From assembly GCA_049322675.1 (NCBI GenBank), contig JBMORM010000022.1:1-46987 (forward strand): a DNA stretch of 46,987 bases, read 5' to 3'. This DNA comes from Patescibacteria group bacterium. Its GTDB lineage: Bacteria > Patescibacteriota > JAHJAL01. How positions within the stretch are numbered: position 1 is the first letter of the stretch; each line of letters starts with the position of its first letter. The notes below the pieces were generated by a model, which ran no database searches, was not told the origin of the DNA, and saw nothing but the letters and a program-made list of their open reading frames with translations. Shown here in pieces: positions 15,172 through 46,987 of this stretch. A program made the position numbers and the translations under genes.

Positions 15172-16095
15172 ATGCAAAATTGGAAAAAAATATTATATTC
15201 CGTGGGGATGGGGGTGGTGGCTTGTTTGATTGTGGTGGCAACTGGTGTGTTGCTTTGGCAATTGACGGCCGGACAACGACGGACGATGGCGGAGGAATAT
15301 TTACAGAAGGCTGATGATTATTTGGCCGAAGATGACGGACAGGCTTTGTGGGAGTTGACAAAAGCCTATACTTTGGATTTGAGTTATCGGGATTATCGAG
15401 TAAAGAGGGCTTTGGCTTTGCGGACTTTGGGCGACAAAGATGCGGAAAAAGAGTTGAAGGAAGTAATTGATCTTAATTGGGCTGATGACATGGTGAATTT
15501 TCGTTATGCCGAGATTTTGTTGGAACAAGGTAAGGAAAATGAGGCGGTTGATTTTTTTAAAAAGGTGACGAATCGAGCTGATAGTGAGGTAAAAAATGAG
15601 GTTTTGTTGAATTTGCTGCAGTTGGCTGGAAATCAGGGAAAGTGGGAAGAGGCGGTGGGTTTTCGAGGGCAATTGATTGATCTGGAAAAAAATAATCCGG
15701 AAAAATTGCGTTATGAAGCGGCTCTTTCTTTGGTGACGGTAGATTTGAATGATGAACTGAAAAAAAAGTTGAAGTTGGTATTGGGTGAAAAATTTTCGGA
15801 AGAAAAATATACCATTTTGAATCAAGTGAATGGGGATAGTTATGTGGTGCAAGCGGCTGATTGGTTGTTGGATTTGGGTTTGACAAAGTGGGGTCGTAAT
15901 TATCTGCAACAGTTGGATCAAACTGATTTGGAAATGATAGATGTTTATTTGTTGCAAGCCAAGAGTTATTGGTTGGAAGGAAAATGTGCTTTGGCTGCGG
16001 ATTATATTGAACGGACGTATCAAATTGATTCGACAAATGAGCAGGTGAGGGAGTGGGAAGAGTTGATAGGTGGGGGATGTAGAGAATTAAAATAA
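15172..16095 (+). CDS. Membrane-anchored TPR-repeat protein
   Basis: 307 aa. An N-terminal TM helix is followed by helical repeats such as YAEILLEQGKENEAVDFFKKV and AKSYWLEGKCALAADY. Confidence 0.7.
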   Translation: MQNWKKILYSVGMGVVACLIVVATGVLLWQLTAGQRRTMAEEYLQKADDYLAEDDGQALWELTKAYTLDLSYRDYRVKRALALRTLGDKDAEKELKEVIDLNWADDMVNFRYAEILLEQGKENEAVDFFKKVTNRADSEVKNEVLLNLLQLAGNQGKWEEAVGFRGQLIDLEKNNPEKLRYEAALSLVTVDLNDELKKKLKLVLGEKFSEEKYTILNQVNGDSYVVQAADWLLDLGLTKWGRNYLQQLDQTDLEMIDVYLLQAKSYWLEGKCALAADYIERTYQIDSTNEQVREWEELIGGGCRELK

Positions 16096-16247
16096 ATTTC
16101 CAATTTCCAATTTTCGATTTCCAATAAAGGCTCAATTTTTCCCTCACGGGACCGAACCGCTGCTGGCAATTTTCAAACAAGTAGGTATTTCATTGGAAAT
16201 TGTGAATTGGAAATTTTTTGGAAATTGGAAATTGTGAATTGGAAATT
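16095..16247. repeat. Heptamer hairpin element with 31-nt unit
   Basis: The (AATTTCC)n arm abuts the upstream stop codon, the 31-nt unit lies at 16141-16171, and the (GGAAATT)n arm ends 8 nt before the next ATG. Confidence 0.9.
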
Positions 16248-16255
16248 GCTAATTT

Positions 16256-17698
16256 ATGGAAATAAATATATTAAAGAGAAAGGCTTGGAAGTGGTTGGGG
16301 GAGAACAGGGAATATTTGATTATATCTCTGGTTTTTTTGTTGGTTTATTGTTTGTTGTCGGTGGTCAAGCATTTTAATTTTCAGACGGCGGCGTTTGATA
16401 TGGGGATTTTTAATCAATCGCTTTATTTGTATTCCCATGGTTGGTTGGGTCCAAATACGATTAGACAAGTGGCGACGTTGTTTGGAGATCATTTTGAGCC
16501 GATAATGCTTTTGATCAGCCCTTTGTATTATATTTTTCGGTCATATACTTTGCTTTTGGTACAGATAGCGGCGGTGATTTTTGGTGGGACCGGGGTGTAT
16601 TTGTTGGTGAAAAAGGAGACGAATGATAAAAAATTGGCGGTAGGTTCTTTGTTAATATTTTATTTGTTTTATGGGGTATATGATGCGATAGTTTTTGATT
16701 ATCACAATGGAGTATTGGGGATCATGTTGATACCTTGGTTGTTTTATTGTTGGTCGGTTCGTAAATGGGGTTGGTACTATGCGTTGTTGATTTTGATGTT
16801 GTTGTGTAAGGAAAATTTGGCTTTGATGTTGTTTTGTTTGGGATTTTCAATTTGGTGGTGGGCTGACAAGAAGGATAAAAAACATAGTTTGATAACTGGT
16901 GGTTTGAGCGCGGTCTATTTTTTGGTAGTAATATATTTGCTTATTCCCCATTTCAATGAGGGAAAATATGATCATTGGTTGTCTTATGCCAAATATGGGG
17001 CGACGCCGGTGGCGGGTTTGATATTTTTTCTGACCCATCCGTGGGAGTTGGTAAAGTTATTTTTTGATGATATTCAAAAAATTAAGACTTGGGGAATGAT
17101 TTTGCTGACCGGGGGAATTTTGGCTTTTTGGAAACCGAAATATTCTTTGATATTGTTGCCGGTGTTGGCACAAAAATTTTTGTCGGCTAATCCGGTTTAT
17201 TGGGGGCATATTTTTCATTATTCAATCGAGTTTTCTTTGGTGATTGCTATCGGGGTGGGAGTATTTTTGGGTCAAATAAAAAAACCAATCTGGAAATATG
17301 GTTTGATGGTGTTTTTTGTAATAATGAATGTAGCGGTTTTAAATAGTGTTCATTTTTATGATGGTCGGACGATTAGAGATATTTTCTTACCAAAAAATTA
17401 TCAAATTGGTTTTGATCGAAATGATGTGTGGGAGGCGATGAAATTGATTCCGGCGGGGGCGGCGGTGAGTGCGCAAAATACCCTGGTGTCTCATCTGGCC
17501 GATCGGAGGAAAATATTTTTGTATCCGGCGGTGGAGGATAGTGAATATATTATTTTCAACTTGAAAGATTTTAGTTTTTGGCCGACGACAAAGGAGGATG
17601 TTGAACGGGATGTGTTGAAGTATGAACAAAGTGGTTCTGGGTGGGACAAGGTTTATGAAAAAAATGGGGTGGTTCTTTTTAGGAAAATCAACGATTAA
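16256..17698 (+). CDS. DUF2079-like polytopic membrane protein (probable GT-C glycosyltransferase)
   Basis: 480 aa with many TM helices and the motifs FDMGIFNQ, FGDHFEPI, FDYH, CKEN and FHYS. Confidence 0.75.
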   Translation: MEINILKRKAWKWLGENREYLIISLVFLLVYCLLSVVKHFNFQTAAFDMGIFNQSLYLYSHGWLGPNTIRQVATLFGDHFEPIMLLISPLYYIFRSYTLLLVQIAAVIFGGTGVYLLVKKETNDKKLAVGSLLIFYLFYGVYDAIVFDYHNGVLGIMLIPWLFYCWSVRKWGWYYALLILMLLCKENLALMLFCLGFSIWWWADKKDKKHSLITGGLSAVYFLVVIYLLIPHFNEGKYDHWLSYAKYGATPVAGLIFFLTHPWELVKLFFDDIQKIKTWGMILLTGGILAFWKPKYSLILLPVLAQKFLSANPVYWGHIFHYSIEFSLVIAIGVGVFLGQIKKPIWKYGLMVFFVIMNVAVLNSVHFYDGRTIRDIFLPKNYQIGFDRNDVWEAMKLIPAGAAVSAQNTLVSHLADRRKIFLYPAVEDSEYIIFNLKDFSFWPTTKEDVERDVLKYEQSGSGWDKVYEKNGVVLFRKIND

Positions 17699-17762
17699 CA
17701 TTAATAATGAATAATTAATAGTGAATAATAATTGGATGGTTAAAAGTTGGAAAGTTGGGGGG

Positions 17763-17796
17763 ATAAAAAAACGAACTTGTTGGTTCGTTTTTTTAT
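17763..17796. terminator. Bidirectional intrinsic terminator
   Basis: ATAAAAAAACGAAC-6 nt-GTTCGTTTTTTTAT forms a perfect 14-bp stem between convergent genes. Confidence 0.75.
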
Positions 17797-17815
17797 TATT
17801 TGCTGGGAGAAAATT

Positions 17816-18604
17816 TTAATGGTTGGTTAGATTTATTTTCCACTGTTTTTCAAAGTATTTAATTATGTTGTCTGTTTCTTCTTGGGAGAAGTGGAGGTCG
17901 AGGAGTTTTTTTTCGATGGTGATGGGGGTTTCGGTGATGATCATGTCGCCATTGTGGTTGATTGGTTGAGATTTGGGTGCAAAAATTTTTGATTGAATCG
18001 GATAATCTTGCGGTAGGGATGGTAGTTGGTGACTGTGGAGATAATCGGGGTCAACGTAGCATTCGATTTGCGGATAGGTGCCTGAATAGTTGTAAAACAG
18101 ATGACGATGGAGATGAAAAAGAGCGTAACAGCGCTTGAGGTTTTTGGGGATCGATTCGCAATGCATAAATTGGCAGAATTTTCCCCAGTTTTCGCGGGCG
18201 ATCCAGCGAAAATTTTCTTTGTGATGCCAAAAATCAATCACTTGTTGGAAGGTAGGAGAGTACTGGTTGCCAGATTTGGCGTAGTTGGTCAGACGGAAGT
18301 CGGGTGGTTCGGTAAAGCCACTTTCGTATTCCAGGAGGGCGAGATCGATTGGTTTGTCTTGAGCGCTTTGGGTTAAATTGTCTTTGGCCAATCGGATTTT
18401 TTTGTCGAGGTTGTCGGGGTTGTAGTAGCGGGGTTGGTAGCCGAGTTGGTCGGCCAAGTATTTTATTTTTTCCGGCCAGTTGATTGATTCGGTGAGATCG
18501 TCGCTGGATTGATATATTTGTTTGACGGCGGCGAGTTCCAACTGGTCAACCGGACCGAAGTAGTCGGGAGAGGTGGAAATATGTTTTTCCAGATGATTTT
18601 TCAT
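17816..18604 (-). CDS. Hypothetical protein
   Basis: 262-aa ATG ORF, co-oriented with and 29 nt from the upstream gene. No motif recognised. Confidence 0.6.
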   Translation of the reverse strand: MKNHLEKHISTSPDYFGPVDQLELAAVKQIYQSSDDLTESINWPEKIKYLADQLGYQPRYYNPDNLDKKIRLAKDNLTQSAQDKPIDLALLEYESGFTEPPDFRLTNYAKSGNQYSPTFQQVIDFWHHKENFRWIARENWGKFCQFMHCESIPKNLKRCYALFHLHRHLFYNYSGTYPQIECYVDPDYLHSHQLPSLPQDYPIQSKIFAPKSQPINHNGDMIITETPITIEKKLLDLHFSQEETDNIIKYFEKQWKINLTNH

Positions 18605-18633
18605 TTTTTGTTTGGGTTTTCAGGTGAAATTGA

Positions 18634-19767
18634 TTAATAGGTGTATTTTTGATTAAGCTCAAAATTGGCTTTGTTTTTAAGAAATATTAGATTTTGTTGT
18701 TCGGAGTGAAAGAGATTATAATTGGAGATTAATTCCGCTTGGACACGATTGATATCGACAGTTGAGAGATTGTTTTTTAGATAGTTTATTCCGGAAAGAA
18801 GTTCTTTTTTGTCTATATTGAAGTTAGGGGAAAGAATAGCGATAAATTTGTCGAGATTGTTTTTTTTGTTTCCCGATTGATTCAATAATAAATCCAGTTT
18901 AAAAAACGAGAGAATGTCGTTGATGGATGGTCCGTTGATATTGGCTTGTTTAAAAATATTTCGAAAATCGAAATCTGAGGTAAGTGTTTCGATAAATTCT
19001 TTGGAAAAATTATTTTCTTTCAAGAGTTGATTGCACTGTTCGAGCCGGTTTTTGCGATTTTCTGGTTCGTAAAAAGCTAGGGCTTGATTGATGATATTGT
19101 AGTCTTTGCGATTGCCTTTGAGTTGTGGGGTGGTATAGTCAGATATTTCTTTGATGTCGCCAATGAATTTGGTGAGATAGATATAACGGTTATTTTTTTT
19201 ATTCCAGTTGGAATATCCGGTGTCATTGAGCAAGATTTTGGCAAAACGGCTTTCAATAGCGGATAATTGTGCCAATTCATCAGGGGCGATGTTTTTGTTG
19301 AATCGGAGATACAGTTTTGGTAGATGTCTTTTGAGAATAGGTCGGATAAATCTTGTGCGCATTTGTTCAAGATATTCGGGTTGGTTTTGATAATATTTTT
19401 GGATATCATCCCAACCTTCGACTGCACTGGTAATGGTTTGTCGATCTTCTTCGGTTAAATTGGTAAAAATGTTTTTTTGTTCTTCGATAAATTTCCCGCC
19501 GCTGTTGTTTTTGATGGTGTTGTGGATGGAACCGACTTTTACTTCAGTTTCTTGGATAGTGGAATTGCCGCTGCGGACGGCATCGGTCCAGGTTTCATTA
19601 CCGACTTTAGCGACCAGGTTGTTGAGCCTGAGTCGCTGTTCCTCAGTGGTTTTTTGGTAAGTGTCATAATTTTTTTGCCAGTCGGTTGAATTGTTTTGAT
19701 CTGTTTTGGAATTATTTTTTTCAACTGAGTTTTGCTGTTGGTTTTCGTTTGGTTGTTGGTTTAGCAT
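18634..19767 (-). CDS. Hypothetical protein (N/K/Q-rich)
   Basis: 377-aa ATG ORF. No motif recognised. Confidence 0.65.
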   Translation of the reverse strand: MLNQQPNENQQQNSVEKNNSKTDQNNSTDWQKNYDTYQKTTEEQRLRLNNLVAKVGNETWTDAVRSGNSTIQETEVKVGSIHNTIKNNSGGKFIEEQKNIFTNLTEEDRQTITSAVEGWDDIQKYYQNQPEYLEQMRTRFIRPILKRHLPKLYLRFNKNIAPDELAQLSAIESRFAKILLNDTGYSNWNKKNNRYIYLTKFIGDIKEISDYTTPQLKGNRKDYNIINQALAFYEPENRKNRLEQCNQLLKENNFSKEFIETLTSDFDFRNIFKQANINGPSINDILSFFKLDLLLNQSGNKKNNLDKFIAILSPNFNIDKKELLSGINYLKNNLSTVDINRVQAELISNYNLFHSEQQNLIFLKNKANFELNQKYTY

Positions 19768-19845
19768 ATTTTTTTGTTTAAATTATTTATTTGTTTACTA
19801 CTAGTTGTTTTTATAATTTTGATTTTGTTGGTTTTTTTTATTTTT

Positions 19846-21627
19846 CTACTCCTTGGTGGCGGTCCAGACTTCTTCGATGGTGGTAATGCCGTCGAGGACT
19901 TTTAATAAGCCATCTTGCTCCATGGTGGTCATACCTTCTTCGGCGGCGGCTTTTTGGAGGGCGGAGAGGGAGAGATTGTTTAAAACAACTTGTTCAATCT
20001 TGGGAGTAATACCAAATGTTTCGATGACAGCGATACGTCCTTTGAATCCGGTGTGGTTACAAGCGGCACAACCAACGCCGTGACTGAGAGTGGTCTGAAT
20101 GCCTGTTTTGCCGCGGCGTTTGTTTTGGGGGATTGAATCAAAAATTCGTTGCATTTCCTGGATGACGAGAGGGTCCGGTTGGTAATCTTGGCGACAGTTG
20201 TTACAAATTTTTCTGACCAATCGTTGGGCGATAATCAAATTGATGGAACTGATAATCAGGTAGGGTTTTATGCCCATTTCGATCAAGCGGGGGAGGGCGC
20301 CGGCGGCGTTGTTGGTATGCAGGGTGGAGAGAACGAGGTGACCGGTCAAAGAGGCTTGGGTGGCGATTTCGGCGGTTTCGGCGTCGCGGATTTCACCCAC
20401 CAGGACTTTGTCCGGATCTTGACGGAGGATAGCGCGGAGGCCTTTGGCAAAGGTGTGGCCGCGTTCGGCGTCGATTTGACTTTGGGTGATGCCGGCGATA
20501 CGATACTCGACCGGATCTTCCAGGGTGATAATTTTGGATTCGGGGTCGTTGAGTTCTTGTAAAATCGCGTAGAGAGTGGTGGTTTTACCGGAGCCGGTAG
20601 GACCGGTGTTGAGAATCATGCCGTTGGGTTTGTGAATGGCGTTGTTGATGGCGATGTTGATATCATCCGGGAAACCAAGTTCGGCTAGAGTTACAAATTT
20701 GTCACTTTGTTCGAGCAGACGCATAACGGTTGATTCGCCATAAATGGTTGGCAAAACGGAAACACGAATATCAAATCGGGAATCGGCGGCGGTGATAGAA
20801 AAACGTCCGTCTTGGGCCAGACTGCCGATATCCAATTTCATTTTGGCTAAAAATTTGATACGAGACATCAGAGATTTGAAGGCGACTTTGTCGAGCATGG
20901 CCACGTCTTGCAGGGCGCCGTCGAGACGATAGCGAAGGCGGATTTGATTTTCGGTTGGTTCGATGTGAATGTCGGAAGCGCCGATTTTGACAGCGCCGGT
21001 CATGATGATATCGATCAAGTCGGTAGTCGAGACGGTTTTTATTTTTTGTTGTAGTTGTTGGAGGTTGGAGATTTCGTTTTCAAACCGGGCTTCCTTGTCT
21101 TTGTTGATTTCTATTTTTTCGGTGTCGGTGACTTCGGGGACAAGAATGTCATAGATTTTGAGAACATAATCAATGCTACTGTCGGTGCAAAGACTGACTA
21201 AAAATTCATAGCCGGTGGCGTCCTGAAATTTTTTCAATACTTCCAAGACTACTTGGTTGTAGTCGATGGCGGCGATACGGATTTTTTTGCTGGCCTTGAG
21301 GTAAGGAACGACGCGATATTTGGTGGCGATGTCTTTGGGGATGATAGACAGGACTTCCGGACTGATGGGGTAGTTGATTAGATTGACGTAGGGGAGATTG
21401 AATTTTTTGGCTTTGCTCTGGGCGATTGCTTCCTCTTCTTCTTGTTGAAAAACGCGAACGGTTTGGGCAACTTTTTGGGCTTTGCCGTGGCCGATTTCTT
21501 TGGATTTTTGTTGAACGGCCATGACTTGTTTAGCGGCCTCGACTTCTTCCCGCATTTTTTGCATCAGTCGTTGAGGGGTGTCGCCGGTATTGAAAGTGAC
21601 TTGATTTTGATTGTTTTCGTCGGTCAT
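19846..21627 (-). CDS. pilB: PilB/GspE-family secretion/pilus assembly ATPase
   Basis: 593 aa with ASDIHIEP, GPTGSGKTTT, TLEDPVEY, LRQDPD, TGHLVLSTLHTN and a tetracysteine motif CNNC...CAAC. Confidence 0.9.
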   Translation of the reverse strand: MTDENNQNQVTFNTGDTPQRLMQKMREEVEAAKQVMAVQQKSKEIGHGKAQKVAQTVRVFQQEEEEAIAQSKAKKFNLPYVNLINYPISPEVLSIIPKDIATKYRVVPYLKASKKIRIAAIDYNQVVLEVLKKFQDATGYEFLVSLCTDSSIDYVLKIYDILVPEVTDTEKIEINKDKEARFENEISNLQQLQQKIKTVSTTDLIDIIMTGAVKIGASDIHIEPTENQIRLRYRLDGALQDVAMLDKVAFKSLMSRIKFLAKMKLDIGSLAQDGRFSITAADSRFDIRVSVLPTIYGESTVMRLLEQSDKFVTLAELGFPDDINIAINNAIHKPNGMILNTGPTGSGKTTTLYAILQELNDPESKIITLEDPVEYRIAGITQSQIDAERGHTFAKGLRAILRQDPDKVLVGEIRDAETAEIATQASLTGHLVLSTLHTNNAAGALPRLIEMGIKPYLIISSINLIIAQRLVRKICNNCRQDYQPDPLVIQEMQRIFDSIPQNKRRGKTGIQTTLSHGVGCAACNHTGFKGRIAVIETFGITPKIEQVVLNNLSLSALQKAAAEEGMTTMEQDGLLKVLDGITTIEEVWTATKE

Positions 21628-21640
21628 AGGGGTAAAATTA

Positions 21641-21727
21641 AATTTTCAATTTTCAATTTTCAATTTCCAAATATGTATTGTCGCAAGATTGGGAAAAAGA
21701 GAATTGAATAATTAATAATTGGAAATT
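21641..21727. repeat. Short heptamer hairpin element
   Basis: (aattttc)3 aatttcc ... aattggaaatt fills the gap between the 1904-aa gene and pilB. Confidence 0.7.
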
Positions 21728-27474: not shown

Positions 27475-27595
27475 AGTTGAAAGTTTGAAAGTTATAAAGT
27501 TTTTTCGTTTCAACTTTCAACTTTGTAACTTTATAACTGATTTTTCTGTTTTTAAGAGTTTTAAAGGGTTTGTAAGTGTTTCTAAGAGTTTTTTA
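27475..27595. repeat. AAAGTTN/NAACTTT hairpin followed by a 10-mer GTTTNNAAGA tract
   Basis: agttgaaagtttgaaagttataaagtt...aactttcaactttgtaactttataact (27475-27538), then 10-nt periodic repeats at 27548-27595. Confidence 0.7.
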
Positions 27596-29083: not shown

Positions 29084-29084
29084 A

Positions 29085-33473: not shown

Positions 33474-33522
33474 ATTTTAGTTATTATTTTTGTAAAATTA
33501 ATTTATTTGAAGGTGGCTATTC

Positions 33523-33663: not shown

Positions 33664-33664
33664 T

Positions 33665-34360: not shown

Positions 34361-34413
34361 ATGGTAGGTTACAATATTCTTTTAATTTTTGACTAATTTT
34401 TTGGTTATCTTTC

Positions 34414-34543
34414 AATTTCCAGTTTCCAGTTTCCAATTTCCAAAAAAGGCTCAATTTCCAAACGAATGCAATCTGTTCCTGTATTTGTTTGGAAATTGAT
34501 CATTGGAAATTTATTGAAAATTGGAAATTGAGAATTGAAAATT
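34414..34543. repeat. Heptamer hairpin element
   Basis: Same architecture including the aaggctcaatttccaaac and gtttggaaattgatcattggaaatt core. Abuts the prgI stop codon. Confidence 0.9.
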
Positions 34544-35254
34544 TTATTTTTGTTGTCTCAAAATCTCCGCAATGGCATCTTTTTTGGTTTGGTTTTCTTT
34601 GGCTGTTATTTCGGCCGGTGCCATTGGTTCGGTTGGTTTTTTGGCAAAGATGTTTTTAAAAAAGCTGCCGACATTGCTGGTGGCGGGTTGAATGTTGTTG
34701 TTGATGGCGGAAGGGATTGGATTTGAATTGGAGCTGGTAGGAGTAGCGGTGGTTGATTTTTGTTTTTCCAAGATTGTTTGTTTGGCTGTGTCTTCTTGAG
34801 CGATTTCGGATATGGTTGAACGAATATCTTTTTGCGGTTCGATTTGAGTGTCCAAAATCAAAGACAATTGTTGGAGTTGGGATTTGATTTCCTCCGGATG
34901 TTTGATGGCTTGTTTTTCTTTGGCAGTGTCGGATTTGGCAGTTTGACTGGTACTTTCAAAAACCGGGGGTGGCAGGGGTTGCCAGGTTAGTATTTTTGGA
35001 CCGGCGAGAAAAAGCAGCAGATTGAGGACAAACTTGGAAAATGGTTGTTCGTTGACGGGGACAAAAGCAAAGGCAAGAGCCAGTAGAACCAAGGGGATAG
35101 AGATAGCGTAAAACAAGTTACCGGCGCCAAATTGCAGATAAACCATGTAAACTCCGGCGGCGGAAAAAAGTAAATACAAAAACTGCTCGAGGGTCAGAGG
35201 ACCGATGATTTGGTCTGGCATTTTGATGTTTTGGGGAACTTTGTATTGGAGCAT
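34544..35254 (-). CDS. prgI: PrgI-family (VirB3-like) membrane protein
   Basis: QYKVPQNI...DQIIGPLTLEQFLYL, two TM helices and NEQPF. ATG at 35254 preferred over the TTG at 35272. Confidence 0.8.
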   Translation of the reverse strand: MLQYKVPQNIKMPDQIIGPLTLEQFLYLLFSAAGVYMVYLQFGAGNLFYAISIPLVLLALAFAFVPVNEQPFSKFVLNLLLFLAGPKILTWQPLPPPVFESTSQTAKSDTAKEKQAIKHPEEIKSQLQQLSLILDTQIEPQKDIRSTISEIAQEDTAKQTILEKQKSTTATPTSSNSNPIPSAINNNIQPATSNVGSFFKNIFAKKPTEPMAPAEITAKENQTKKDAIAEILRQQK

Positions 35255-37024: not shown

Positions 37025-37030
37025 AAATTT

Positions 37031-38020: not shown

Positions 38021-38056
38021 TTTATATTAAAATTATTAATCGATGATGATAAATAT

Positions 38057-40420
38057 TTAACCTAGGTTTTTGACTTCGAATTTTCTAGTATTATTGTTAT
38101 TGTTTAGATTGTTTAGGCTTATTCCAGCGTTTTGGAGAATGCTCACTCGTTCGGGATTGGTGTTGGCGGCAAAGTTGTTGGTGGCGGTGGAATTGAGAGT
38201 AGTTTGATTGAGGACGTTGTTGATTTGGTTGATATTGTTGTTGGCAGCAGTTTGGACCGGAGTTGCAGTATTGACTGTTTTTTCGGTTTCTTTAACTTGA
38301 ATTAATTTGTCGAGAGTGTTGTTGACGTAAGTGATATTTTCGTTGTTTTTTCCGGCATTGTTGATGAGATTGGTGACTCGTTGGTCGCCATCCGCGGCTT
38401 TTAGAGCGGCTTGAATATTATTTTGACTCATGTAGTTGTTAACTTGTTTGATTTGAGCAGTGCTTAGTTTAGTTTCTTTGGCAATACTGGTGGCTTGGTT
38501 TTTGGCGGCGTCGTTAAATTTTTCGTTGTAGGATTTGGCTAGTTGACCGAGAGTCACGGTATTGTTGGCAGAAACTTGTTTTTTATCAAGGTATTGGCCC
38601 AGGTTGTTTTGTGAAAGATCGATTGTGTTGTTGAGATTGGCGTTGAAAGCACGCGAATTTATTAGTTGTTCGACTTTTTCGGGCGAGGTGCTTTGTAACA
38701 TTTTGATTTGTTCAGGAGTAAAAGTATTGGATTTGAGTAGTGCTTGACCGTAGGCTCCGACGGCTGGCTCGGTGGCAATCAGAGATGAAAGCGAACCGGC
38801 GGCGGCACTGATGGTGGCGCTAGAGTAGGCAGGAGAGGAAGAGTTTTGGGTGCCGGAGGATGAGTTTGGATTAAAAAATGTATCTGTGTCGGCTTTCATT
38901 CGTTGTTGGAATCCCAAGACTTTTTGAGAAAAATCTTTGGCTTCTTTGAAGATTCTGTCGTTTGGATCCACTTTTCCTTGGTATTGGTCGATGGCGGAGG
39001 CGACGGCGAGAGTGGTTTGATAGGCTTTGTCCAGATTTGACGTTGGTTTGTTTGAAGTTTGTCCCGGTTGAGAGGCGTTGGCGTAATCTTGGCCGGAGAT
39101 TGGAGATGTTCTGCCAGTGTTGCCGATTCGCATTTGTCTTCTTGTGTTTGCGCCACTGCTTCCACTTCCGCTTCCTGTTGTTGCTCCGCCAATGCCTTGG
39201 CCGCCGATGTTGGTGTTGATGTTGCTGGTGTTACCACCTTTATTTTTGCCAAATAATCCGCCGATAAGATTGCCTCCTTGCGACATGGCTCCGTACATCA
39301 TCATATTGGAAATCATTCCTCCGCTGCTGCCCGATAAGGATAAGGGAATAGTGAGGGCGGTTACGAGGACAAATATTCCGGAGATGTAGCCGATAATAGC
39401 GGAAACAAAATTTCCTTCAGGAGAAGTGTCAATGTTGTCAGTATTGGTCAATATTTCTTTGATTGCTTGCGGACTGTCCGGTAAAAATATGGTGGCAATA
39501 CCAAGAATAAATAAAATTAATGGGATAATAAAAATCCAACTGAGATATTGTCCAAGCCATTTTTGACCGATGCTTTTGGTGGGCGGAAATGATAATAATA
39601 TTATTCCCAGAGGTGCCAAAATGATAAGAATATACAAAATGATTTGACGGGCAATGGCTACAAAGGCAAGGGCGACAATAACTAGTGTTGGTAAGATTAA
39701 AAATAGAGCGACGATTAAAAGTTCGATGATCAAAATTATTTGTTGCATTTCGACGCCGCCGCCCAGTTTGTTGAGAGTATCAAGGATAAATCCCAGATTG
39801 GCTGTATTTTCTTGGTTTATACCTTGGCCTGCATTTTGGTTGGAAAAAATGGCGAAAATTGCGTCGAGAACATTTGTTTTGTCAGGAGAGATGTCGATTC
39901 CAGTAGTGCGATCGACTATTGTTTGAATAATTGAAGTATTTCCAGTGACAAAAAGTGAATCAACCTCATGATTAATTAGGTCGGAAAGGTCAAGCAAGGC
40001 GCGAGAAACGAGGAAGCTGAGATTGGCGAGAACGAAACCGATAATGAGTGAAGGCAGTGTTTTTTTAATTGCGTAGGTTTCGAGATTGAGGCGAAGGGTG
40101 TTGGCTAAGGCGATAGCCAGTAAAATAAAAATAGCAATAATATTTACAAAAAAGATTGAATAGGACCAACCGTCGCCGATTCTTTGGTGGGATAGACTTA
40201 TTTCTGTTGAGTGTTCGATTATTGTGATTGCCAAACCATTGATTGCTTTTGTGACTCCTATAACAATGACAATTACTTTTACCAATGTATCAGTGAGTCC
40301 ATCGAGTTGTATGTTGGGGGCAAAATATTTTAAGGCGGTTTGAACTATGCTGTCGCCGCTGCTTTCGGCGGCCAGGGTGGTGACCGGTTGTAAAATTAGT
40401 CTGTAGAATAAAAGGAACAT
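38057..40420 (-). CDS. VirB6/TrbL-like membrane protein with G/S/N/Q-rich C-terminal tail
   Basis: 787 aa. A multi-TM N-terminal half precedes a low-complexity tail. First gene of the prgI-virB4 run. Confidence 0.72.
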   Translation of the reverse strand: MFLLFYRLILQPVTTLAAESSGDSIVQTALKYFAPNIQLDGLTDTLVKVIVIVIGVTKAINGLAITIIEHSTEISLSHQRIGDGWSYSIFFVNIIAIFILLAIALANTLRLNLETYAIKKTLPSLIIGFVLANLSFLVSRALLDLSDLINHEVDSLFVTGNTSIIQTIVDRTTGIDISPDKTNVLDAIFAIFSNQNAGQGINQENTANLGFILDTLNKLGGGVEMQQIILIIELLIVALFLILPTLVIVALAFVAIARQIILYILIILAPLGIILLSFPPTKSIGQKWLGQYLSWIFIIPLILFILGIATIFLPDSPQAIKEILTNTDNIDTSPEGNFVSAIIGYISGIFVLVTALTIPLSLSGSSGGMISNMMMYGAMSQGGNLIGGLFGKNKGGNTSNINTNIGGQGIGGATTGSGSGSSGANTRRQMRIGNTGRTSPISGQDYANASQPGQTSNKPTSNLDKAYQTTLAVASAIDQYQGKVDPNDRIFKEAKDFSQKVLGFQQRMKADTDTFFNPNSSSGTQNSSSPAYSSATISAAAGSLSSLIATEPAVGAYGQALLKSNTFTPEQIKMLQSTSPEKVEQLINSRAFNANLNNTIDLSQNNLGQYLDKKQVSANNTVTLGQLAKSYNEKFNDAAKNQATSIAKETKLSTAQIKQVNNYMSQNNIQAALKAADGDQRVTNLINNAGKNNENITYVNNTLDKLIQVKETEKTVNTATPVQTAANNNINQINNVLNQTTLNSTATNNFAANTNPERVSILQNAGISLNNLNNNNNTRKFEVKNLG

Positions 40421-40461
40421 ATGTGTTTTTGTTTTGTTTTTGGCTGTATAAAAATCATATT

Positions 40462-40491
40462 ATTGTACCAAATTTGGTTTGTATTTGTCAA
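40462..40491 (-). promoter_or_regulatory. Sigma70 promoter for the virB6-prgI-virB4 operon
   Basis: Minus strand TTGACA-18 nt-TACAAT with extended -10 (TGgTACAAT), ~40 nt upstream of the ATG at 40420. Confidence 0.7.
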
Positions 40492-40653
40492 GATTGATAC
40501 TGATTTTGTTTTGTGTGCCTGTTTTTGGAGAAGATTATATTTTAGCAGTGAGGGGGTAAAATTGTAAAGGGTTGGGTGGTGAAATTTTTCTGACTTTATA
40601 TTTTTTGGAATTTTTAAGACTCGAACATTGCCTTTGATGAAGAGAGTCGGGTA

Positions 40654-40821
40654 AATTTCCAATTCTCAATTTCCAATTTCCAAAAAATGACTCAATTTCC
40701 AAACAAATTCAAGATGCTTTCTTATTAAGTTGAATCTGTTAGGAAATTGGTCATTGAAAATTTATTGGAAATTGAGAATTGCCAGCAGCAGTTCGGTCCC
40801 GTGAGGGGAAAATTGGAAATT
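40654..40821. repeat. Heptamer hairpin element with 31-nt unit in reverse orientation
   Basis: AATTGCCAGCAGCAGTTCGGTCCCGTGAGGG at 40777-40807 lies within the GGAAATT arm. Confidence 0.9.
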
Positions 40822-40841
40822 TTAATCAGGGTAGTGCAAGA

Positions 40842-40870
40842 AAAACACCTTCAAAGCTTGAAGGTGTTTT
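40842..40870 (-). terminator. Intrinsic terminator after the pilin array
   Basis: AAAACACCTTCAA-3 nt-TTGAAGGTGTTTT forms a 13-bp stem 22 nt past the last pilin stop. Confidence 0.7.
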
Positions 40871-40892
40871 AAGATAGCAAGAATTTGAGGAG

Positions 40893-41204
40893 TTATTTGA
40901 TTTTCTGGATTACAAAACGGATGATCAGGTTGGCGGAAAGGATGATGACTAGACCAATAACAGACCAAGTGATGGTGCCGATGGCTTTTTTTCCTTGTTC
41001 GGGATTGCCGGCGGCGGTGATGTATTGGTATCCGCCCAGGACGGCATAAGCGATAGATATCAATCCGGCGAGGGTAGTGGCGGTGTTTATAACCAATGTG
41101 AGAAGGTCGTAGATATTGGTATCAACATCTTTGAAGGGATTCAGTTTTTTTAACTCTTCAAAAAAGTTGAAGCCGGCGGCGAGATAAAAAAGCCAGTTGT
41201 TCAT
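40893..41204 (-). CDS. VirB2/TrbC-like T4SS pilin (8 of 8)
   Basis: 103 aa; TM-GGYQYITAAGNPEQGKKA-TM (VIGLVII). Confidence 0.85.
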   Translation of the reverse strand: MNNWLFYLAAGFNFFEELKKLNPFKDVDTNIYDLLTLVINTATTLAGLISIAYAVLGGYQYITAAGNPEQGKKAIGTITWSVIGLVIILSANLIIRFVIQKIK

Positions 41205-41222
41205 GGTAATTATTTGTTAGGA

Positions 41223-41603
41223 TCAGCTACCGGTGATAATGGCATTTGGGATACCTGTTCCACCAAAGACGACTCTTTGAACAGTGACAACGATGGCATA
41301 AGCGGCAAAGATTACTACTAGACCGATAACAGCGTTGAGTAAGGTGCGGACGGCTTTTTTGGTAGTTTCTTCATTCCCACCGGAGGTAATGTAGTTGAAA
41401 CCACCAATGATCAAATAGACCACAGCGACCAAACCGGCGGCGCCCAAAATATAGTTGATGATTGTAAAGGCAAGACTTTCAACGTTGGTTTTTACAGCTT
41501 GAGGTAGAGATTCTGCGCCAGCAGCAAAAGCGGTGGCGTAATAAAACGCAGTGGCGGTGAGAGTTGTCAAGCCGGATGTGACTTGAGCAATTTTTTTGTT
41601 CAT
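41223..41603 (-). CDS. VirB2/TrbC-like T4SS pilin (7 of 8)
   Basis: 126 aa; GGFNYITSGGNEETTKKA..LLNAVIGLVVIFAAYAIV. Confidence 0.85.
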   Translation of the reverse strand: MNKKIAQVTSGLTTLTATAFYYATAFAAGAESLPQAVKTNVESLAFTIINYILGAAGLVAVVYLIIGGFNYITSGGNEETTKKAVRTLLNAVIGLVVIFAAYAIVVTVQRVVFGGTGIPNAIITGS

Positions 41604-41639
41604 AGAACTCCTAAATGAATTTATATTAAAAATAATAAT

Positions 41640-42017
41640 TTAATTGATAATACCGGGTATGCCGGGAGCGACTACATCTTGGATGGAAATAACTATAGCA
41701 TAGGCAGCGAAGATTACTACTAGACCGATAACGGCATTGAGTAAGGCTTTTGTAGCTTTTTTGCTGGTTTCTTCGTTTCCTCCAGAGGTGACATACATGA
41801 AACCGCTGATGATAATATAGATAACCGCGACTAGGCCCGCGGCGACCAGGGCGTAATTGATGATGCCAAAAGCAAAATCAGTAATATTTTGTTTTGGACC
41901 GCCCCAGGGATCGAGAAAGCTATCAAAACTTACTGCCAGAGCAGTACTTTTTAGATACAGAAAAGAAAATATTGCGACGAATGGTTGCCAAATCTTTTTG
42001 GCGTCTTGCGTTGACAT
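41640..42017 (-). CDS. VirB2/TrbC-like T4SS pilin (6 of 8)
   Basis: 125 aa; SGFMYVTSGGNEETSKKA..LLNAVIGLVVIFAAYAIV. Confidence 0.85.
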   Translation of the reverse strand: MSTQDAKKIWQPFVAIFSFLYLKSTALAVSFDSFLDPWGGPKQNITDFAFGIINYALVAAGLVAVIYIIISGFMYVTSGGNEETSKKATKALLNAVIGLVVIFAAYAIVISIQDVVAPGIPGIIN

Positions 42018-42132
42018 TTTTCTCCTTTTTTCTCTAGTGCTAGATAATAATATATCTTAAATATTTTTAAAAAACAATGTGGTTGAAGTGGAAAATTATC
42101 ATAGAGTCAAAATGATTTATTGTCAAAGGTTT

Positions 42133-42429
42133 TTATTTGATTATATCTACGACAGTGGTTTTGATGGCGTAGGCGGCGAGGACGATTACTAGACCGATGA
42201 CAGCGAAGGTGAGAGTTTTTTGGGCTTTTTTGGAGGTTTCTTCGTTGCCTTGGGACATGATGTATTGGAAACCGCCTATTATGATAAACACTACAGCGAC
42301 CAGGCCGGCGACGGTGAGAAAATAGTTGACAAAGGTCCAACCCAAATCTTCGATGTTGTTGAATTTAATCGGTGATTCTGGTTCAGGGACTGATTCGGCG
42401 GCGAGGACGGGGGAGATAAAATTTAGCAT
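42133..42429 (-). CDS. VirB2/TrbC-like T4SS pilin (5 of 8)
   Basis: GGFQYIMSQGNEETSKKA..AVIGLVIV. ATG at 42429 preferred over the TTG at 42453. Confidence 0.85.
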   Translation of the reverse strand: MLNFISPVLAAESVPEPESPIKFNNIEDLGWTFVNYFLTVAGLVAVVFIIIGGFQYIMSQGNEETSKKAQKTLTFAVIGLVIVLAAYAIKTTVVDIIK

Positions 42430-42595
42430 GGAACGTATATTAATAATTAACAATTAATAATGAAAAATGAATAATAGGTATAAAGTTGATAGGCTCAAGT
42501 TTTCTGCTGGGTGCGAACTTGTTTCGGGATTACAAAATTTTTAAAGATAATTTAATGCTTGAAGCCGAGTGCGTTTTTATAAGTTAATTTTTTTG

Positions 42596-42928
42596 TTATT
42601 CTATTTTTAAAACTGCTTTTATAGAACTCACGATGACGGCGGCGGCGAGGACGATGACTAGGCCGATGACAGCGTTGGTGAGCGTTTTTTGTCCGGCTTT
42701 GGTTTTTTCGTCATTGCCGCCGGAAGTGAGATATTGATAACCGCCATAGACCAAAAAAGCGACACAAACAATGCCGGCGAAGCCATAGGCCCAGGAGAAA
42801 ATGGTAAAAATCAGGTCGTAGATATTATCAAATTTGAGAGGATTTTCCGGAAGAAAACTTTCCAGTTTGCCTAAAATATCATCTTCGGCGAGAAGGGTTA
42901 GTTGGTGAAAAATTATTTGAGGGAACAT
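42596..42928 (-). CDS. VirB2/TrbC-like T4SS pilin (4 of 8)
   Basis: 110 aa; GGYQYLTSGGNDEKTKAG..LTNAVIGLVIV. Confidence 0.85.
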   Translation of the reverse strand: MFPQIIFHQLTLLAEDDILGKLESFLPENPLKFDNIYDLIFTIFSWAYGFAGIVCVAFLVYGGYQYLTSGGNDEKTKAGQKTLTNAVIGLVIVLAAAVIVSSIKAVLKIE

Positions 42929-42997
42929 TTTTTTTAATTAACAATTAATAATTAACAATTGGTAATAGCTGTTTGGTGTTTTTTTGAAATTTAATGG

Positions 42998-43345
42998 TCA
43001 GTTGTGGAGATCTTCGATGTTGATTCCGGTGAATTTGTCCAGAAAAGTAGCGACGATGATATATCCGGTAAGAGTGACTACAAAACCGATTATGGCCCAC
43101 AATAGACTACTTTTGGCTTTTTTGCTGGTTTCTTCGTTGCCGCCGGAATAGATGAGTTGAAGACCGCTGATGATGATAAATAAGACGGCGACGAGAGCAC
43201 CCAAACCGATTAGATTGCCGGCTAAGTACAAAACAAAACCAAGCACATCTTCAAAAGTTGCTTCTTTGGCACAATGGGCAAATTTGTAGCCAAAGAGAAC
43301 TAAAGGTTCGCAGGCGGTAGCCAAATAGGTGAGTGAATTAAACAT
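42998..43345 (-). CDS. VirB2/TrbC-like T4SS pilin (3 of 8)
   Basis: 115 aa; SGLQLIYSGGNEETSKKA..LLWAIIGFVV. Confidence 0.85.
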   Translation of the reverse strand: MFNSLTYLATACEPLVLFGYKFAHCAKEATFEDVLGFVLYLAGNLIGLGALVAVLFIIISGLQLIYSGGNEETSKKAKSSLLWAIIGFVVTLTGYIIVATFLDKFTGINIEDLHN

Positions 43346-43368
43346 TGTTTAATATTTTTTATTTTGAG

Positions 43369-43731
43369 TTATTGTTGGTCAACTTTGAGCCAGACTTTGA
43401 TAGTTTGGACAATCACTACTCCGGCGAGAGCGATAATAAAACCGATGATGGCGTTGGTGAGGGCTTTTTTGCCGGTTTGAACTTGTTGTTCGTTACCAGC
43501 TGAGCTGACCAAGATGTAGCCACCGTAAATAATGTAGCCGACGGCTAAAAATCCGGCAATAGACAGTAAAAAGGTGATGGCGTTGAGTAGAAATGGGGCA
43601 ATCATGCCAAATAATGTCTCGTCGCCATCAAGCGGTTTGGTGTCAGTAAGGTTCGGGACGTATTCTTCGGCGCGGGCGAAGTTGGGGAATAGAAAGATGG
43701 TGGATAGAATTAAATATTTTAGTTTAGACAT
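43369..43731 (-). CDS. VirB2/TrbC-like T4SS pilin (2 of 8)
   Basis: 120 aa; signal sequence ending ARA, then GGYILVSSAGNEQQVQTGKKALTNAIIG. Confidence 0.85.
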   Translation of the reverse strand: MSKLKYLILSTIFLFPNFARAEEYVPNLTDTKPLDGDETLFGMIAPFLLNAITFLLSIAGFLAVGYIIYGGYILVSSAGNEQQVQTGKKALTNAIIGFIIALAGVVIVQTIKVWLKVDQQ

Positions 43732-43760
43732 GATTTAAGTAAAAGATAATAAGACGTAAA

Positions 43761-44312
43761 TTAGGTGAATGCTCCTGGATTTCCACCGGGGACAACAGTG
43801 CCGTCTTCAAGTGGGTTACCGGTGCCTTCGTTAGTTCCTGAGTAATTATTTGGTTGAGTGGTTTGGCTGCTGGTACTAGGTTCCGGTTTGGGATTGTTGA
43901 TGATTTGAGGGGAAATGATGCGAAGGACGGTGTAGGCAAGGACCAATAGGGCGAGACTGACGAGGGCGGAGATGATGGTATTTTTTCCTTTGTTGATCAT
44001 CTCCGGATTTCCGGAGGAAATAATCATGGTGTAGCCGCCATATACTATCATGATAATAGAGATACCGGTAATAAGCCAGATGGCAAAAATGTAAAAATCT
44101 TTAACGTATTCACTGAGGCTGGAATATTTATTATCGCTGGAGGTAGGCAGTTGGGCACGCACTTCGACCGGTTTGTCGGCGGCGATTATTGTGAAAGAAG
44201 AAAACAGATTATTGTTGGTTTGGGCGCGAGAAGGTTGAGGACATATCACTATGATCCCTATCAGAAGTAGGAATGAAAAAAATATTTTTTTGAATGTATT
44301 TGCTTTGATCAT
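43761..44312 (-). CDS. VirB2/TrbC-like T4SS pilin with C-terminal extension (1 of 8)
   Basis: 183 aa; GGYTMIISSGNPEMINKGKNTIISALV plus a P/T/S/N/G-rich tail. Confidence 0.8.
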   Translation of the reverse strand: MIKANTFKKIFFSFLLLIGIIVICPQPSRAQTNNNLFSSFTIIAADKPVEVRAQLPTSSDNKYSSLSEYVKDFYIFAIWLITGISIIMIVYGGYTMIISSGNPEMINKGKNTIISALVSLALLVLAYTVLRIISPQIINNPKPEPSTSSQTTQPNNYSGTNEGTGNPLEDGTVVPGGNPGAFT

Positions 44313-45667: not shown

Positions 45668-45715
45668 TTTTTTTAAATTAACAATGAACAATTAAAATTA
45701 ACAGAGGGAGCTTTT

Positions 45716-45872
45716 AATTTTTCCCTCACGGGACCGAACTGCTGCTGGCAATTTCCAGTTTCCAGTTTCCAATGAAGGCTCAATTTCCAATTTTCAAAAA
45801 ATGTTTTGTTGGGATATTTGGAAATTGGTCATTGGAAATTTTTTGGAAATTGAGAATTGAAAATTGGAAATT
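45716..45872. repeat. Heptamer hairpin element with 31-nt unit
   Basis: 31-nt unit at 45723-45753, aaggctcaatttcc core and a GGAAATT arm running to 45872. Confidence 0.9.
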
Positions 45873-45915
45873 TGCTAGTCTGGAATTTTTTTAAAAGATA
45901 AAAATAAACGAAGCG

Positions 45916-46818
45916 CTAGATTTTCAGGGTTTTCAGATATTTTTTAAATTCCGGGCCGATTTCGGGATGGGTGAGGGCAAATTCGGTGACGGTTTTTAGA
46001 TATTCCAATTTGTTGCCGCAGTCATAATATATGGCTTTGGTAAGTTCCAGGGCGTAGCAGGTTTTTTTTCTTTCCAGTAAAACATTGATAGCGTCGATAT
46101 AGTTTAATTCGCGGGGGGTGTTTTCCTGTTCGAGGCGATACATAGCTTCTTCGATAGCGTTGAAATAATCTGGTTCAAATAGGTAACCGCTGATTACCGC
46201 ATAATCGGATTTGATGCGGTTGGGTCCGGGTTTTTCGATGATTTGATTTATTTTTAATAAGTGGGAGTTGATTTTTTTACCGATAGCGTAGCCGTAACGG
46301 GAATAATCTTCCGGTTTATTTTTTCGCAGTGAGCCGAGGATGCAGGAAGCGGGATTTGATTGGTAAGTGGAGATGAGTTGTTGACAACGTCCAGGTTTGG
46401 CGACCATGATATCGTCGGCCCAGAGGACCAAAAACGGTTCGTTGCCGATCACTTTGCGAGCGTTCCAGATCGGGGTGGCATTGCCGAGAGGTCCTTTTTG
46501 ACGGATATAGTAAAAGTTGGCTAGGTTGGCGATGTGTCTGATTTCTTCCAGTTCATTTAGTTTGTTGGCTTCTTCCAGACGTTTTTCCAGTTCAAAGGGA
46601 TAATCAAAATGATCTTCAATGGTGCGTTTTTGCCAGCCGGTGACGATAACGATGTCGGTTATACCGGCGGCGACCGCTTCTTCCACGACGTATTGAATGA
46701 TCGGTTTGTCAACGATTGGCATCATTTCTTTGGGACTGGCTTTGGTGGCGGGGAGAAAGCGGGTACCGTAGCCGGCGGCGGGGATAATGGCTTTCGTGAT
46801 TTTTGGTTTTTTGATCAT
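45916..46818 (-). CDS. galU: UTP--glucose-1-phosphate uridylyltransferase
   Basis: 300 aa with KAIIPAAGYGTRFLPATKASPKEMMPIVDKP, IEDHFD, IEKP and YDCGNK. Confidence 0.9.
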   Translation of the reverse strand: MIKKPKITKAIIPAAGYGTRFLPATKASPKEMMPIVDKPIIQYVVEEAVAAGITDIVIVTGWQKRTIEDHFDYPFELEKRLEEANKLNELEEIRHIANLANFYYIRQKGPLGNATPIWNARKVIGNEPFLVLWADDIMVAKPGRCQQLISTYQSNPASCILGSLRKNKPEDYSRYGYAIGKKINSHLLKINQIIEKPGPNRIKSDYAVISGYLFEPDYFNAIEEAMYRLEQENTPRELNYIDAINVLLERKKTCYALELTKAIYYDCGNKLEYLKTVTEFALTHPEIGPEFKKYLKTLKI

Positions 46819-46858
46819 AGGTTAAAGTATTGTTTGAATTGGTGGACAGGTAATATCA

Positions 46859-46987
46859 AATTTCCAATTTTCAATTCTCAATTTTCAAACGATATTTTGT
46901 TGGGATATTTGAGAGGGATATTTAATAGTGAAGAATAAAAAATAATGTATTTGGAAATTGATCATCGGAAATTTTTTGAAAATTGGA
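46859..46987. repeat. Heptamer hairpin element (truncated by window end)
   Basis: aatttccaattttcaattctcaattttcaaac ... ttggaaattgatcatcggaaatt... Confidence 0.8.

Follow-up and report, generated by a model that had tools for sequence, protein, structure and literature searches.

What are the long, A/T-rich hairpins that stand between the genes of this 46,987-nucleotide contig (JBMORM010000022.1) of a Patescibacteria group bacterium, hereafter the window, and how did sequence of the same kind come to lie within two of its essential genes? The hairpins have the form (AATTTCC)n...(GGAAATT)n, and we refer to them as the A family. They are one defined element and not the outcome of independent slippage at each site. 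We believe that they are probably a mosaic, non-autonomous repeat family with fast turnover, comparable to the BIME, BOX and RPE elements. Patescibacteria genomes are very small and gene-dense, and yet this one hairpin family accounts for 1,043 of the 4,108 intergenic bases of the window (coding fraction, 91%), or about a quarter, and the repeats of the family lengthen two essential enzymes by 10-50%.

The heptamer pattern, taken as three units with up to 3 mismatches, was matched 35 times in the window compared to 0.01 matches expected from 100 shuffles. Heptamer clusters numbered 16 in the forward sense (AATTTCC type) and nine in the reverse sense (GGAAATT type). Each reverse cluster lay ~20-130 nt downstream of a forward cluster, giving eight hairpins, and the opposite order, a reverse cluster before a forward one, did not occur in the window. 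Copy 40654 (copies are named by their first position) has two reverse clusters, which are separated by an inserted module. The eight copies that the original prediction had picked out from the letters alone were all present at their positions. They are listed here with their minimum free energy (MFE, in kcal/mol), the z-score of the fold and, for three of them, the score with a covariance model; P1 is a 28-nt module described below.

7356-7433, degenerate copy, 7 nt upstream of the start of the Mur-ligase gene; MFE -11.7, z -1.4; 23.9 bits
16095-16247, complete copy between the TPR and DUF2079 genes, overlapping the TAA by 1 nt, with P1 in the loop; MFE -51.6, z -5.1
21641-21727, short copy that shares 2 nt with the stop codon of a 1904-aa open reading frame (ORF), the T2SSE ATPase gene starting 13 nt away; MFE -22.2, z -4.2; 34 bits
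33523-33663, complete copy between the genes for the TrsD-like N-terminal part of VirB4 and the VirB4 ATPase, 1 nt from the upstream stop codon; MFE -51.6, z -7.5
34414-34543, complete copy between the PrgI-family and TrsD-like genes, 0 nt from the upstream stop codon; MFE -52.3, z -7.6
40654-40821, complete copy with an inverted P1 within the right arm, upstream of the TrbL/VirB6 gene; MFE -63.4, z -7.6
45716-45872, complete copy with P1 at the left edge and a loop sequence in common with copy 46859; MFE -46.1, z -2.9
46859-46987, copy cut by the window end, with the 45716-type loop and ~45 nt extra; MFE -25.0, z -1.1; 38.8 bits, outside the training of the model

The elements measure 130-170 nt, have arms that are 79-93% complementary and are without coding capacity; the eight copies lie within 47 kb. 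Folded as the + strand, the five complete copies had MFE values of -46.1 to -63.4 kcal/mol (z -2.9 to -7.6), and the folds of degenerate copy 7356 and window-end copy 46859 were not significant alone. When the five complete copies were aligned, 95.4% of 175 cells were paired, compared to 19-67% with the partner slid by 1-3 columns. Covariation in the stem did not rise above that of shuffles, as two pairs had changed on both sides and 160 of 500 shuffles reached that number. The + strand fold was the more stable one in seven of the eight copies, including six of the seven that lie among minus-strand genes. This preference for the + strand, whatever the strand of the genes, indicates that the mismatches follow the base skew of the chromosome (a strong excess of G and T on the + strand) and not the transcript. 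GC skew was strongly positive, 0.11-0.49 per 2 kb, throughout the 47 kb, before and after the change of gene strand at ~17.7 kb, and the minus-strand genes therefore have C-rich coding strands. No part of the window matched an Rfam family at its gathering threshold. The window ends within copy 46859, as expected if assemblies break at a multi-copy repeat.

The left arm opens with (AATTTCC)3-4 and continues through a spacer that contains AAGGCTC to one or two further units and then AAAC(A/G)AAT, the motif that borders the variable loop. The right arm reads TTTGG-AAATTG(A/G)TCATTGG-AAATTT(T/A)TTGG-AAATTG..GAGAATTG-(G/A)AAATT. Variant heptamers come in a fixed order, AAGGCTC on the left and G(A/G)TCATT followed by GAGAATT on the right, and both the alignment and landmark scans showed this non-periodic order to recur in five to six copies. 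The landmark AAGGCTCAATTTCC was found exactly three times, always on the + strand, with 2-mismatch variants at 16127 and 40687. The landmark GGAAATTG(A/G)TCATTGGAAATT, at 0-1 mismatch, was found on the + strand at 34491, 40742, 45820 and 46953; its single match on the - strand was at 11354, within tsaD. It was from these landmarks that the original prediction had argued for a defined element and against simple slippage, and the recurrence of both, the fixed order of the variants and the loop sequence that copies 45716 and 46859 have in common bear the argument out. Loops vary among copies. Since the two arms differ, the element has a direction, and all six informative copies were oriented alike on the + strand, even though copy 16095 has + strand genes around it and the other five have - strand genes. 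The hairpin ends, (T)AATTTCC ... GGAAATT(T), have neither a GTAG nor a CGTC tag.

P1, with the sequence CCCTCACGGGACCGAAC(T/C)GCTGCTGGCA, had five matches at 0-1 mismatch compared to 0.00 expected. As a structured module it gave no significant fold (z -0.7 to -1.0). The five matches and a variant, P2, are distributed over hairpins and genes as follows.

10306-10333, + strand, P1 in tsaD insert 1
10728-10755, + strand, P1 in tsaD insert 2
11305-11335, + strand, P2 in tsaD insert 4
16141-16168, + strand, P1 in the loop of copy 16095
40780-40807, - strand, P1 inverted in the right arm of copy 40654
45723-45750, + strand, P1 at the left edge of copy 45716

Relatives' loci fetched for comparison (77 besides the window) are referred to by L numbers and protein relatives by P numbers. 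In a Hamming scan of the 77 loci, P1 was found in L001 (5 mismatches) and L029 (3 mismatches). Read in another frame, P2 DNA encodes the peptide FFPSRGSAGAEIS, which a 10-sequence alignment showed to be present in three TsaD loops of P0004; at two of these three loops the window has P1. BLAST of copy 45716 with its P1 against phage and plasmid collections gave no match, in a search that, with the arrays masked by the low-complexity filter, was effectively one with P1 only.

The range of 16095-46987 originally given for the family proved too narrow, as related one-armed arrays were found at 10285-14278, inside tsaD and valS. There, one-armed AATTTCC arrays form in-frame inserts, four in tsaD and two in valS, and always have that orientation on the coding strand. 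Whichever of the six frames is read, the heptamer sequence contains no stop codon. The tsaD arrays of inserts 1, 2 and 4 come with P1 or P2. After the array come (A)AATAAT, or ACATTA in the case of tsaD insert 4, and then a GC-rich stem-loop that begins GTAGGGGC; six copies of GTAGGGGC with its stem-loop were found, at 10351, 10798, 11086, 11399, 13512 and 14289 (fold z -4.1). The inserts, all on the + strand, are listed with the segments of low AlphaFold confidence score (pLDDT) that belong to them.

10282-10383, + strand, tsaD insert 1: heptamers, P1, one heptamer and a GTAG stem-loop at 10351-10379; pLDDT <50 at residues 25-55
10702-10848, + strand, tsaD insert 2: heptamers, P1, heptamers and a GTAG stem-loop at 10798-10822; pLDDT <50 at residues 162-210
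11045-11193, + strand, tsaD insert 3: heptamers and two inverted GC-rich stem-loops at 11085-11112 and 11159-11186, 89% complementary; residues 281-325
11293-11425, + strand, tsaD insert 4: one heptamer, P2, an inverted hairpin right arm (landmark at 11354-11374) and a GTAG stem-loop at 11399-11425; residues 369-398
13452-13538, + strand, valS insert 1: ~6.6 heptamers, AAACAAAT and a GTAG stem-loop at 13512-13538 (z -4.1)
14248-14312, + strand, valS insert 2: four heptamers and a GTAG stem-loop at 14289-14312

Because the right-arm landmark of the hairpins recurs in tsaD insert 4 as an exact reverse complement, the intragenic arrays belong to the same family. With 507 aa, the TsaD protein of the window is longer than that of L003 (344 aa) and those of many others (336-355 aa), and it retains all residues that are invariant in the 10-sequence alignment. 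In its AlphaFold model, 301 residues have a pLDDT of at least 90, and the only long segments with a pLDDT below 50 are residues 25-55, 162-210, 281-318 and 369-398. These four segments coincide with the four inserts, whose loops are predicted to be disordered. A peptide search with TsaD residues 160-212, which needs shared 5-residue words and has a limited length range, returned the query alone of five candidates.

Turnover of the repeats was seen in the sister genome L001, which is syntenic with window 2393-21493 at ~88% DNA identity (ValRS, 84% identical). The orthologous comparison covers this one genome and these 19 kb, and the copies on the side of the type IV secretion system (T4SS) genes lie outside that range. 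At the TPR/DUF2079 junction, the site of copy 16095 in the window, L001 has a hairpin made of arrays of a 9-mer (AAACTTAGC) and a 10-mer (AAACTCTTAA), which spans L001 13868-14030 and also starts at the TAA; such 9-mers also occur in frame in the tsaD loops of L001. The window has arrays of the 10-mer AAACTCTTAA at 11805-11851 and, inverted, at 27548-27592. In the gap between tsaD and valS, a complex palindrome is whole in the window and has its right half replaced by an AATTTTC hairpin in L001. The gap between valS and the TPR gene holds two 8-mer-array hairpins in the window, and half of this palindrome and a GTAG stem-loop in L001. The L001 orthologue of copy 7356 keeps a degenerate P1 (the one with 5 mismatches), which the window copy is without. 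A separate difference between the two genomes is a 3-kb segment at L001 17545-20574, with a 906-aa ORF that has no Pfam match; the window has a 78-nt gap there (19768-19845).

Within the genes, L001 tsaD carries inserts at the four corresponding loops, partly of its own 9-mer units, and in insert 4 the stem-loop alone is common to the window and L001. At valS insert 1, a single heptamer without a stem-loop stands in L001, and the genomes differ by two clean indels, 39 nt of heptamers and a stem-loop of 27 nt that the window has in addition, both lengths being multiples of three. At valS insert 2, the L001 sequence is shorter by 48 nt and bears no relation to that of the window. The site of tsaD insert 3 holds, in four genomes, differing heptamers in one place. 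This last site, the change in valS insert 1, which is mainly one of heptamer number (6.6 vs 1), and the presence of other 7-, 8-, 9- and 10-nt array families in the window and L001 genomes would all fit independent microsatellites, in which an A/T-rich seed had slipped at each locus and been duplicated there in inverted order, with nothing copied between loci. Slippage alone, however, does not yield non-periodic landmarks in constant order in five to six copies, the loop common to copies 45716 and 46859, P1 at five sites or an inverted right arm inside tsaD, and we consider an origin as microsatellites improbable.

With respect to genes, all seven assessable copies had co-oriented neighbors on both sides, in agreement with the placement first claimed for several of them, and no A-family copy was found in the three convergent or divergent gaps. 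The accompanying claim, that several copies end 0-2 nt from a stop codon, applied to four of the seven, which abut the upstream TAA (16095 and 21641 overlap it, 34414 lies at 0 nt and 33523 at 1 nt); the remaining three lie 43, 71 and 492 nt from the upstream stop codon. The downstream start codon is 7-53 nt away for six copies and 233 nt for copy 40654. Position and stem length make a role of the hairpins in mRNA processing or stability plausible.

In a rival reading, the host would select the hairpins as RNA punctuation of its operons: set right behind a stop codon, the long duplex would fix mRNA 3' ends, guide RNase III processing or attenuate read-through and would adjust how strongly neighboring cistrons are expressed relative to each other, with the sequence free to change while the hairpin stays. 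We regard this as possible, though not as likely. The contact with the TAA in four of seven copies and the restriction to co-oriented gaps agree with it, as do stems of 45-55 bp that are 95% paired and the TAA-abutting long hairpin, built of other units, at the TPR/DUF2079 junction of L001; transcribed Correia repeats are cleaved by RNase III, according to an excerpt of PMC10969869. However, the mRNA-sense strand forms the less stable fold in six of the seven copies among minus-strand genes, covariation is no higher than in shuffles, orientation is tied to the chromosome and not to transcription, and arrays of the same kind lie within essential genes. On the minus (mRNA-sense) strand, GAATAG, GAAAGA, TACCCG and AAAAGC, and not a T run, stand directly 3' of the four T4SS-side copies, and an intrinsic terminator scan of 33300-34700 and 40300-41000 gave 0 sites. 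A separate terminator-like stem-loop, recognized by eye at about 40838-40872, stands upstream of copy 40654, and two promoter-like sites (score 10-11 of 12) lie between the copy and the TrbL/VirB6 gene. The shared slot at the TPR/DUF2079 junction would itself be expected by chance, since almost every gap of >100 nt contains some repeat, in the window and L001 alike. An effect on RNA, if there is one, would make the hairpins the first operon punctuation signals to be described for type IV secretion genes, which these epibionts are believed to rely on.

We return to the account of the hairpins as a mosaic, non-autonomous repeat family. For this family we infer that whole elements would be copied at the DNA level, with a transposase recognizing single-stranded hairpins, or template switching, as the candidate copier, and that the arrays may later lengthen and shorten through slippage. 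Copies would persist only at sites of little harm, such as gaps between co-oriented genes and the surface loops of TsaD and ValRS. Once transcribed, a complete copy would place between two cistrons an A/U-rich RNA duplex of 45-55 bp, a likely substrate for RNase III or a block to 3' exonucleases. HUH enzymes transpose single-stranded hairpin DNA in a manner coupled to replication, and single-strand transposition of this type is suggested here by the shared orientation on the chromosome strand, by the REP-type stem-loops and by the stabler + strand fold in seven of the eight copies. A non-autonomous mobile element was among the possibilities raised in the original prediction, and it is supported, though only indirectly, by the L001 junctions that carry other repeats, a hairpin nested in another element or a module that the window lacks. 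If the element is mobile, it would provide a new and easily recognized marker of genome dynamics in a phylum with poorly described mobile DNA, and would be a likely cause of contig breaks.

Several observations weigh against this reading. Inspection by eye found no clean target-site duplication at the hairpin flanks; the short direct repeats near the ends, TATTC (33523), GGGTA (40654) and TACC (L001), have variable offsets and may be due to chance. A Pfam scan detected no transposase, RAYT or integrase domain in 31 window ORFs and 3 large L001-unique ORFs. Some insertions are older, as L029 (ValRS, 67% identical) has the heptamers and P1 of tsaD insert 2 as well, down to the CCCTCGCGGG variant. 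The stop-abutting hairpins of different families that the window and L001 have at the TPR/DUF2079 junction, the one such junction compared, would also fit selection for a hairpin at this place. Copies 33523 and 34414, and likewise 45716 and 46859, are possibly local duplicates, which would weaken the argument from shared orientation. Finally, the A/T-rich arrays of distant genomes, described below, are possibly convergent.

A cassette-boundary recombination site had also been proposed, which would make the hairpins comparable to the attC sites of integrons. They are indeed imperfect inverted repeats of 130-170 nt at gene boundaries, and a 231-aa gene is flanked by two copies (33523 and 34414). 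This proposal was not supported, and we consider it extremely improbable. The copies are flanked by core genes of type IV secretion, the scan of the window ORFs gave no integrase, no GTTRRRY core is visible at the ends of the four T4SS-side copies, and gene order is conserved in L001 although the repeats differ. The flanked gene is one of two that together make up VirB4, namely a TrsD-like N-terminal part (33665-34360, 231 aa) and an ATPase part (31641-33473, 610 aa). The 231-aa ORF matches VirB4 N-terminal models and the TrsD family, and the 610-aa ORF takes up the model where the shorter ORF leaves off. Among the matches listed, 120 of 120 relatives of the ATPase part had 590-745 aa. This indicates that the split of VirB4 is ancestral and usual in the phylum, and we rejected the idea that hairpin 33523 caused it.

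The covariance model, a check put forward in the original prediction, was trained on the five complete copies and run across 1.29 Mb; its E-values are rough and the sequences of low complexity. It recovered the three window copies that were not used for training (38.8, 34 and 24 bits), and it gave matches at E <=0.01 in nine of the 77 other loci (L001, L010, L014, L021, L024, L028, L039, L050 and L070). Three of these nine bear the record title 'uncultured Gammaproteobacteria' (title as deposited), and no locus titled Actinomycetota, Elusimicrobia, Chloroflexi or as a Firmicutes-type genus gave a match at that threshold. By eye, the matches are A/T-rich hairpins with C in the 5' arm only and G in the 3' arm only. 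Some of them (L028, L039) use AATTTCC or AATTTTC units and stand directly after stop codons, and the L021 match lies inside valS, in the loop that holds valS insert 1 of the window. Inverted arrays of 6-11-nt units were found in five of 78 sources (nine pairs in the window, five in L001, two in L028 and one each in L014 and L039) and in none of the remaining 73 loci.

Alternatively, the heptamer arrays could be binding sites of a DNA- or RNA-binding protein with a nucleoid, partition or regulatory function, the hairpin form being secondary. The excess of the three-unit pattern over expectation and the return of the unit in distant Patescibacteria (L021, L028, L039 and P0025) would suit such sites. 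Sister genomes, though, have other units at the corresponding places, the Pfam scan of the window ORFs gave no candidate binding protein, and the spacing of 7 nt is out of step with the helical repeat of DNA. Binding sites therefore seem to us quite improbable as the primary role.

In proteins, ~7 of 52 ValRS loops recovered from the 78 sources had array-type peptides at the site of valS insert 1, and 21 of 43 aligned TsaD relatives had an enlarged loop at at least one of the four sites. Peptides of NFQ/ISN type occur in several of these TsaD relatives, and in one of them (EYRIQNT)n repeats perfectly every 7 residues. The TsaD relative P0028 has, in the same loops, peptides of another, GC-rich repeat type (…SFASLRMTG…, …VIARSEATKQSR…), which indicates that in-frame colonization is not limited to heptamer arrays. 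A wider view, which we think unlikely, is that array-armed hairpins and in-frame arrays at preferred protein loops are a widespread trait of Patescibacteria, driven by an active, strand-specific copying system. The preferred loops would be the ValRS loop just after WGHRIPVWY and the four TsaD loops, often with genome-specific units. Some mechanism, perhaps a hairpin-recognizing HUH enzyme or a templated polymerase, would repeatedly write or homogenize short arrays, with the side effect that disordered loops in essential enzymes of very small genomes would be continually remodelled. The in-frame copies provide a second system, after Rickettsia, for the tolerance of proteins to selfish DNA.

The A-family copies stand in what is, judging by gene content, a piece of Patescibacteria-type chromosome, and the closest relatives of its ValRS and TsaD carry record titles Patescibacteria or Parcubacteria. 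In the Pfam scan, the T4SS genes of the window comprised genes for PrgI, TrbL/VirB6 and a VirB4-like ATPase, and eight T4SS-pilin (TrbC/VirB2-like) paralogues in tandem at 40893-44312, upstream of the TrbL/VirB6 gene; other genes encode a T2SSE ATPase, FemAB, a Mur ligase, TsaD, ValRS and a leucyl aminopeptidase.

Repeats of several other kinds are present. A second hairpin family, of 8-mers (AAAGTTGN ... NCAACTTT), occurs at 14972-15155 (two copies) and 27477-27540, with half arrays at 8978-8999 and 17743-17758; its polarity is opposite to that of the A family, with the G-containing arm 5' and the C-containing arm 3'. The complex palindromic element, ~115-150 nt long, lies at 11866-12017 and 31451-31565 and, in part, at L001 9780-9830 and 12770-12830. 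It has outer arms GTGTCATCCTGGAACTG... and an inner palindrome ATATCCAGGATCCAG, resembles a miniature inverted-repeat transposable element and is itself a target of nested repeats. A 114-nt unit, repeated 3.2 times in tandem at 7495-7879 between the FemAB and Mur-ligase genes and also found at L001 5100-5370, has a perfect 34-35-nt inverted repeat in each copy and no Rfam match. Another 7-mer family (AATTAAC / AATAATG), unpaired, stands beside gene ends at 17700-17729, 42439-42475, 42936-42960 and 45676-45703. A perfect 36-nt GC-rich palindrome at 5954-5989, between two convergent genes, is probably a bidirectional terminator.

We found no published description of heptamer-armed hairpins or in-frame repeats of this sort in Patescibacteria in the open-access literature that was searched. 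Tandem heptamers are familiar from the cyanobacterial STRR sequences, which are said, in work going back to Mazel in 1990 and Elhai in 2008, to occur genome-wide with embedded small dispersed repeats of 21-27 nt, much as P1 lies inside AATTTCC arrays. Phylum and units differ, and we know of no report of STRR arrays paired in inverted order as 50-bp hairpins or present in frame in essential genes. TIGR-Tas arrays, whose unit is tens of bases long, were judged unrelated, the arrays here being contiguous 7-nt units. In BOX elements, a middle module of 45 nt, set between two differing end modules, is what repeats, whereas in the A family it is the arms that consist of tandem arrays; the sequences are unrelated to BOX and the phylum is another one. 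Correia elements are characterized by 26-bp terminal repeats and a TA target duplication, neither of which was seen in the window hairpins.

The likenesses are those of architecture. BOX, RUP and SPRITE of Streptococcus pneumoniae are, as excerpted from PMC10969869, modular intergenic elements with variable unit number, clustering, mutual insertion and stable RNA structures, as here. The Correia (NEMIS) elements of Neisseria are described in the same excerpt as 100-200 nt long, bounded by inverted repeats, co-transcribed with genes and cut by RNase III in the paired arms; their integration host factor site (PMC10969869) was likewise not seen in the window hairpins. The RPE of Rickettsia, ~100-150-nt palindromic repeats that lie in frame in unrelated housekeeping genes and are predicted to be compatible with the fold (PMC10969869, excerpt), are the counterpart of the in-frame inserts. 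The host is unrelated; the intragenic copies here are one-armed arrays with a REP-type stem-loop, predicted to be disordered, and the complete hairpins are intergenic.

The GTAG-tagged REPs are 20-40 bp palindromes with an unpaired GTAG at one end, and REPs are reported inside genes as well (Di Nocera et al. 2013, PMC3733652, in excerpt). The GC-rich stem-loops of the window, with their GTAG tag and significant fold, and with one pair inverted like a REP doublet, match REPs of this type. The heptamer hairpins differ in that they have no GTAG tag and that their arms are A/T-rich tandem arrays of 45-55 nt instead of a GC-rich palindrome of 20-40 bp, and there is no RAYT gene among the window ORFs or the three scanned L001-unique ORFs. 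In their wider organization, though, the repeats are like REP, BIME and REPIN, in which, according to the same excerpt (PMC3733652), palindromic units join other motifs in mosaics found chiefly downstream of genes, where the ORFs on either side are co-oriented or convergent, and in some cases within genes. In kind, then, the A family belongs with elements already known (REP/BIME, BOX, RPE and Correia), and it is its architecture and its host phylum that are new.

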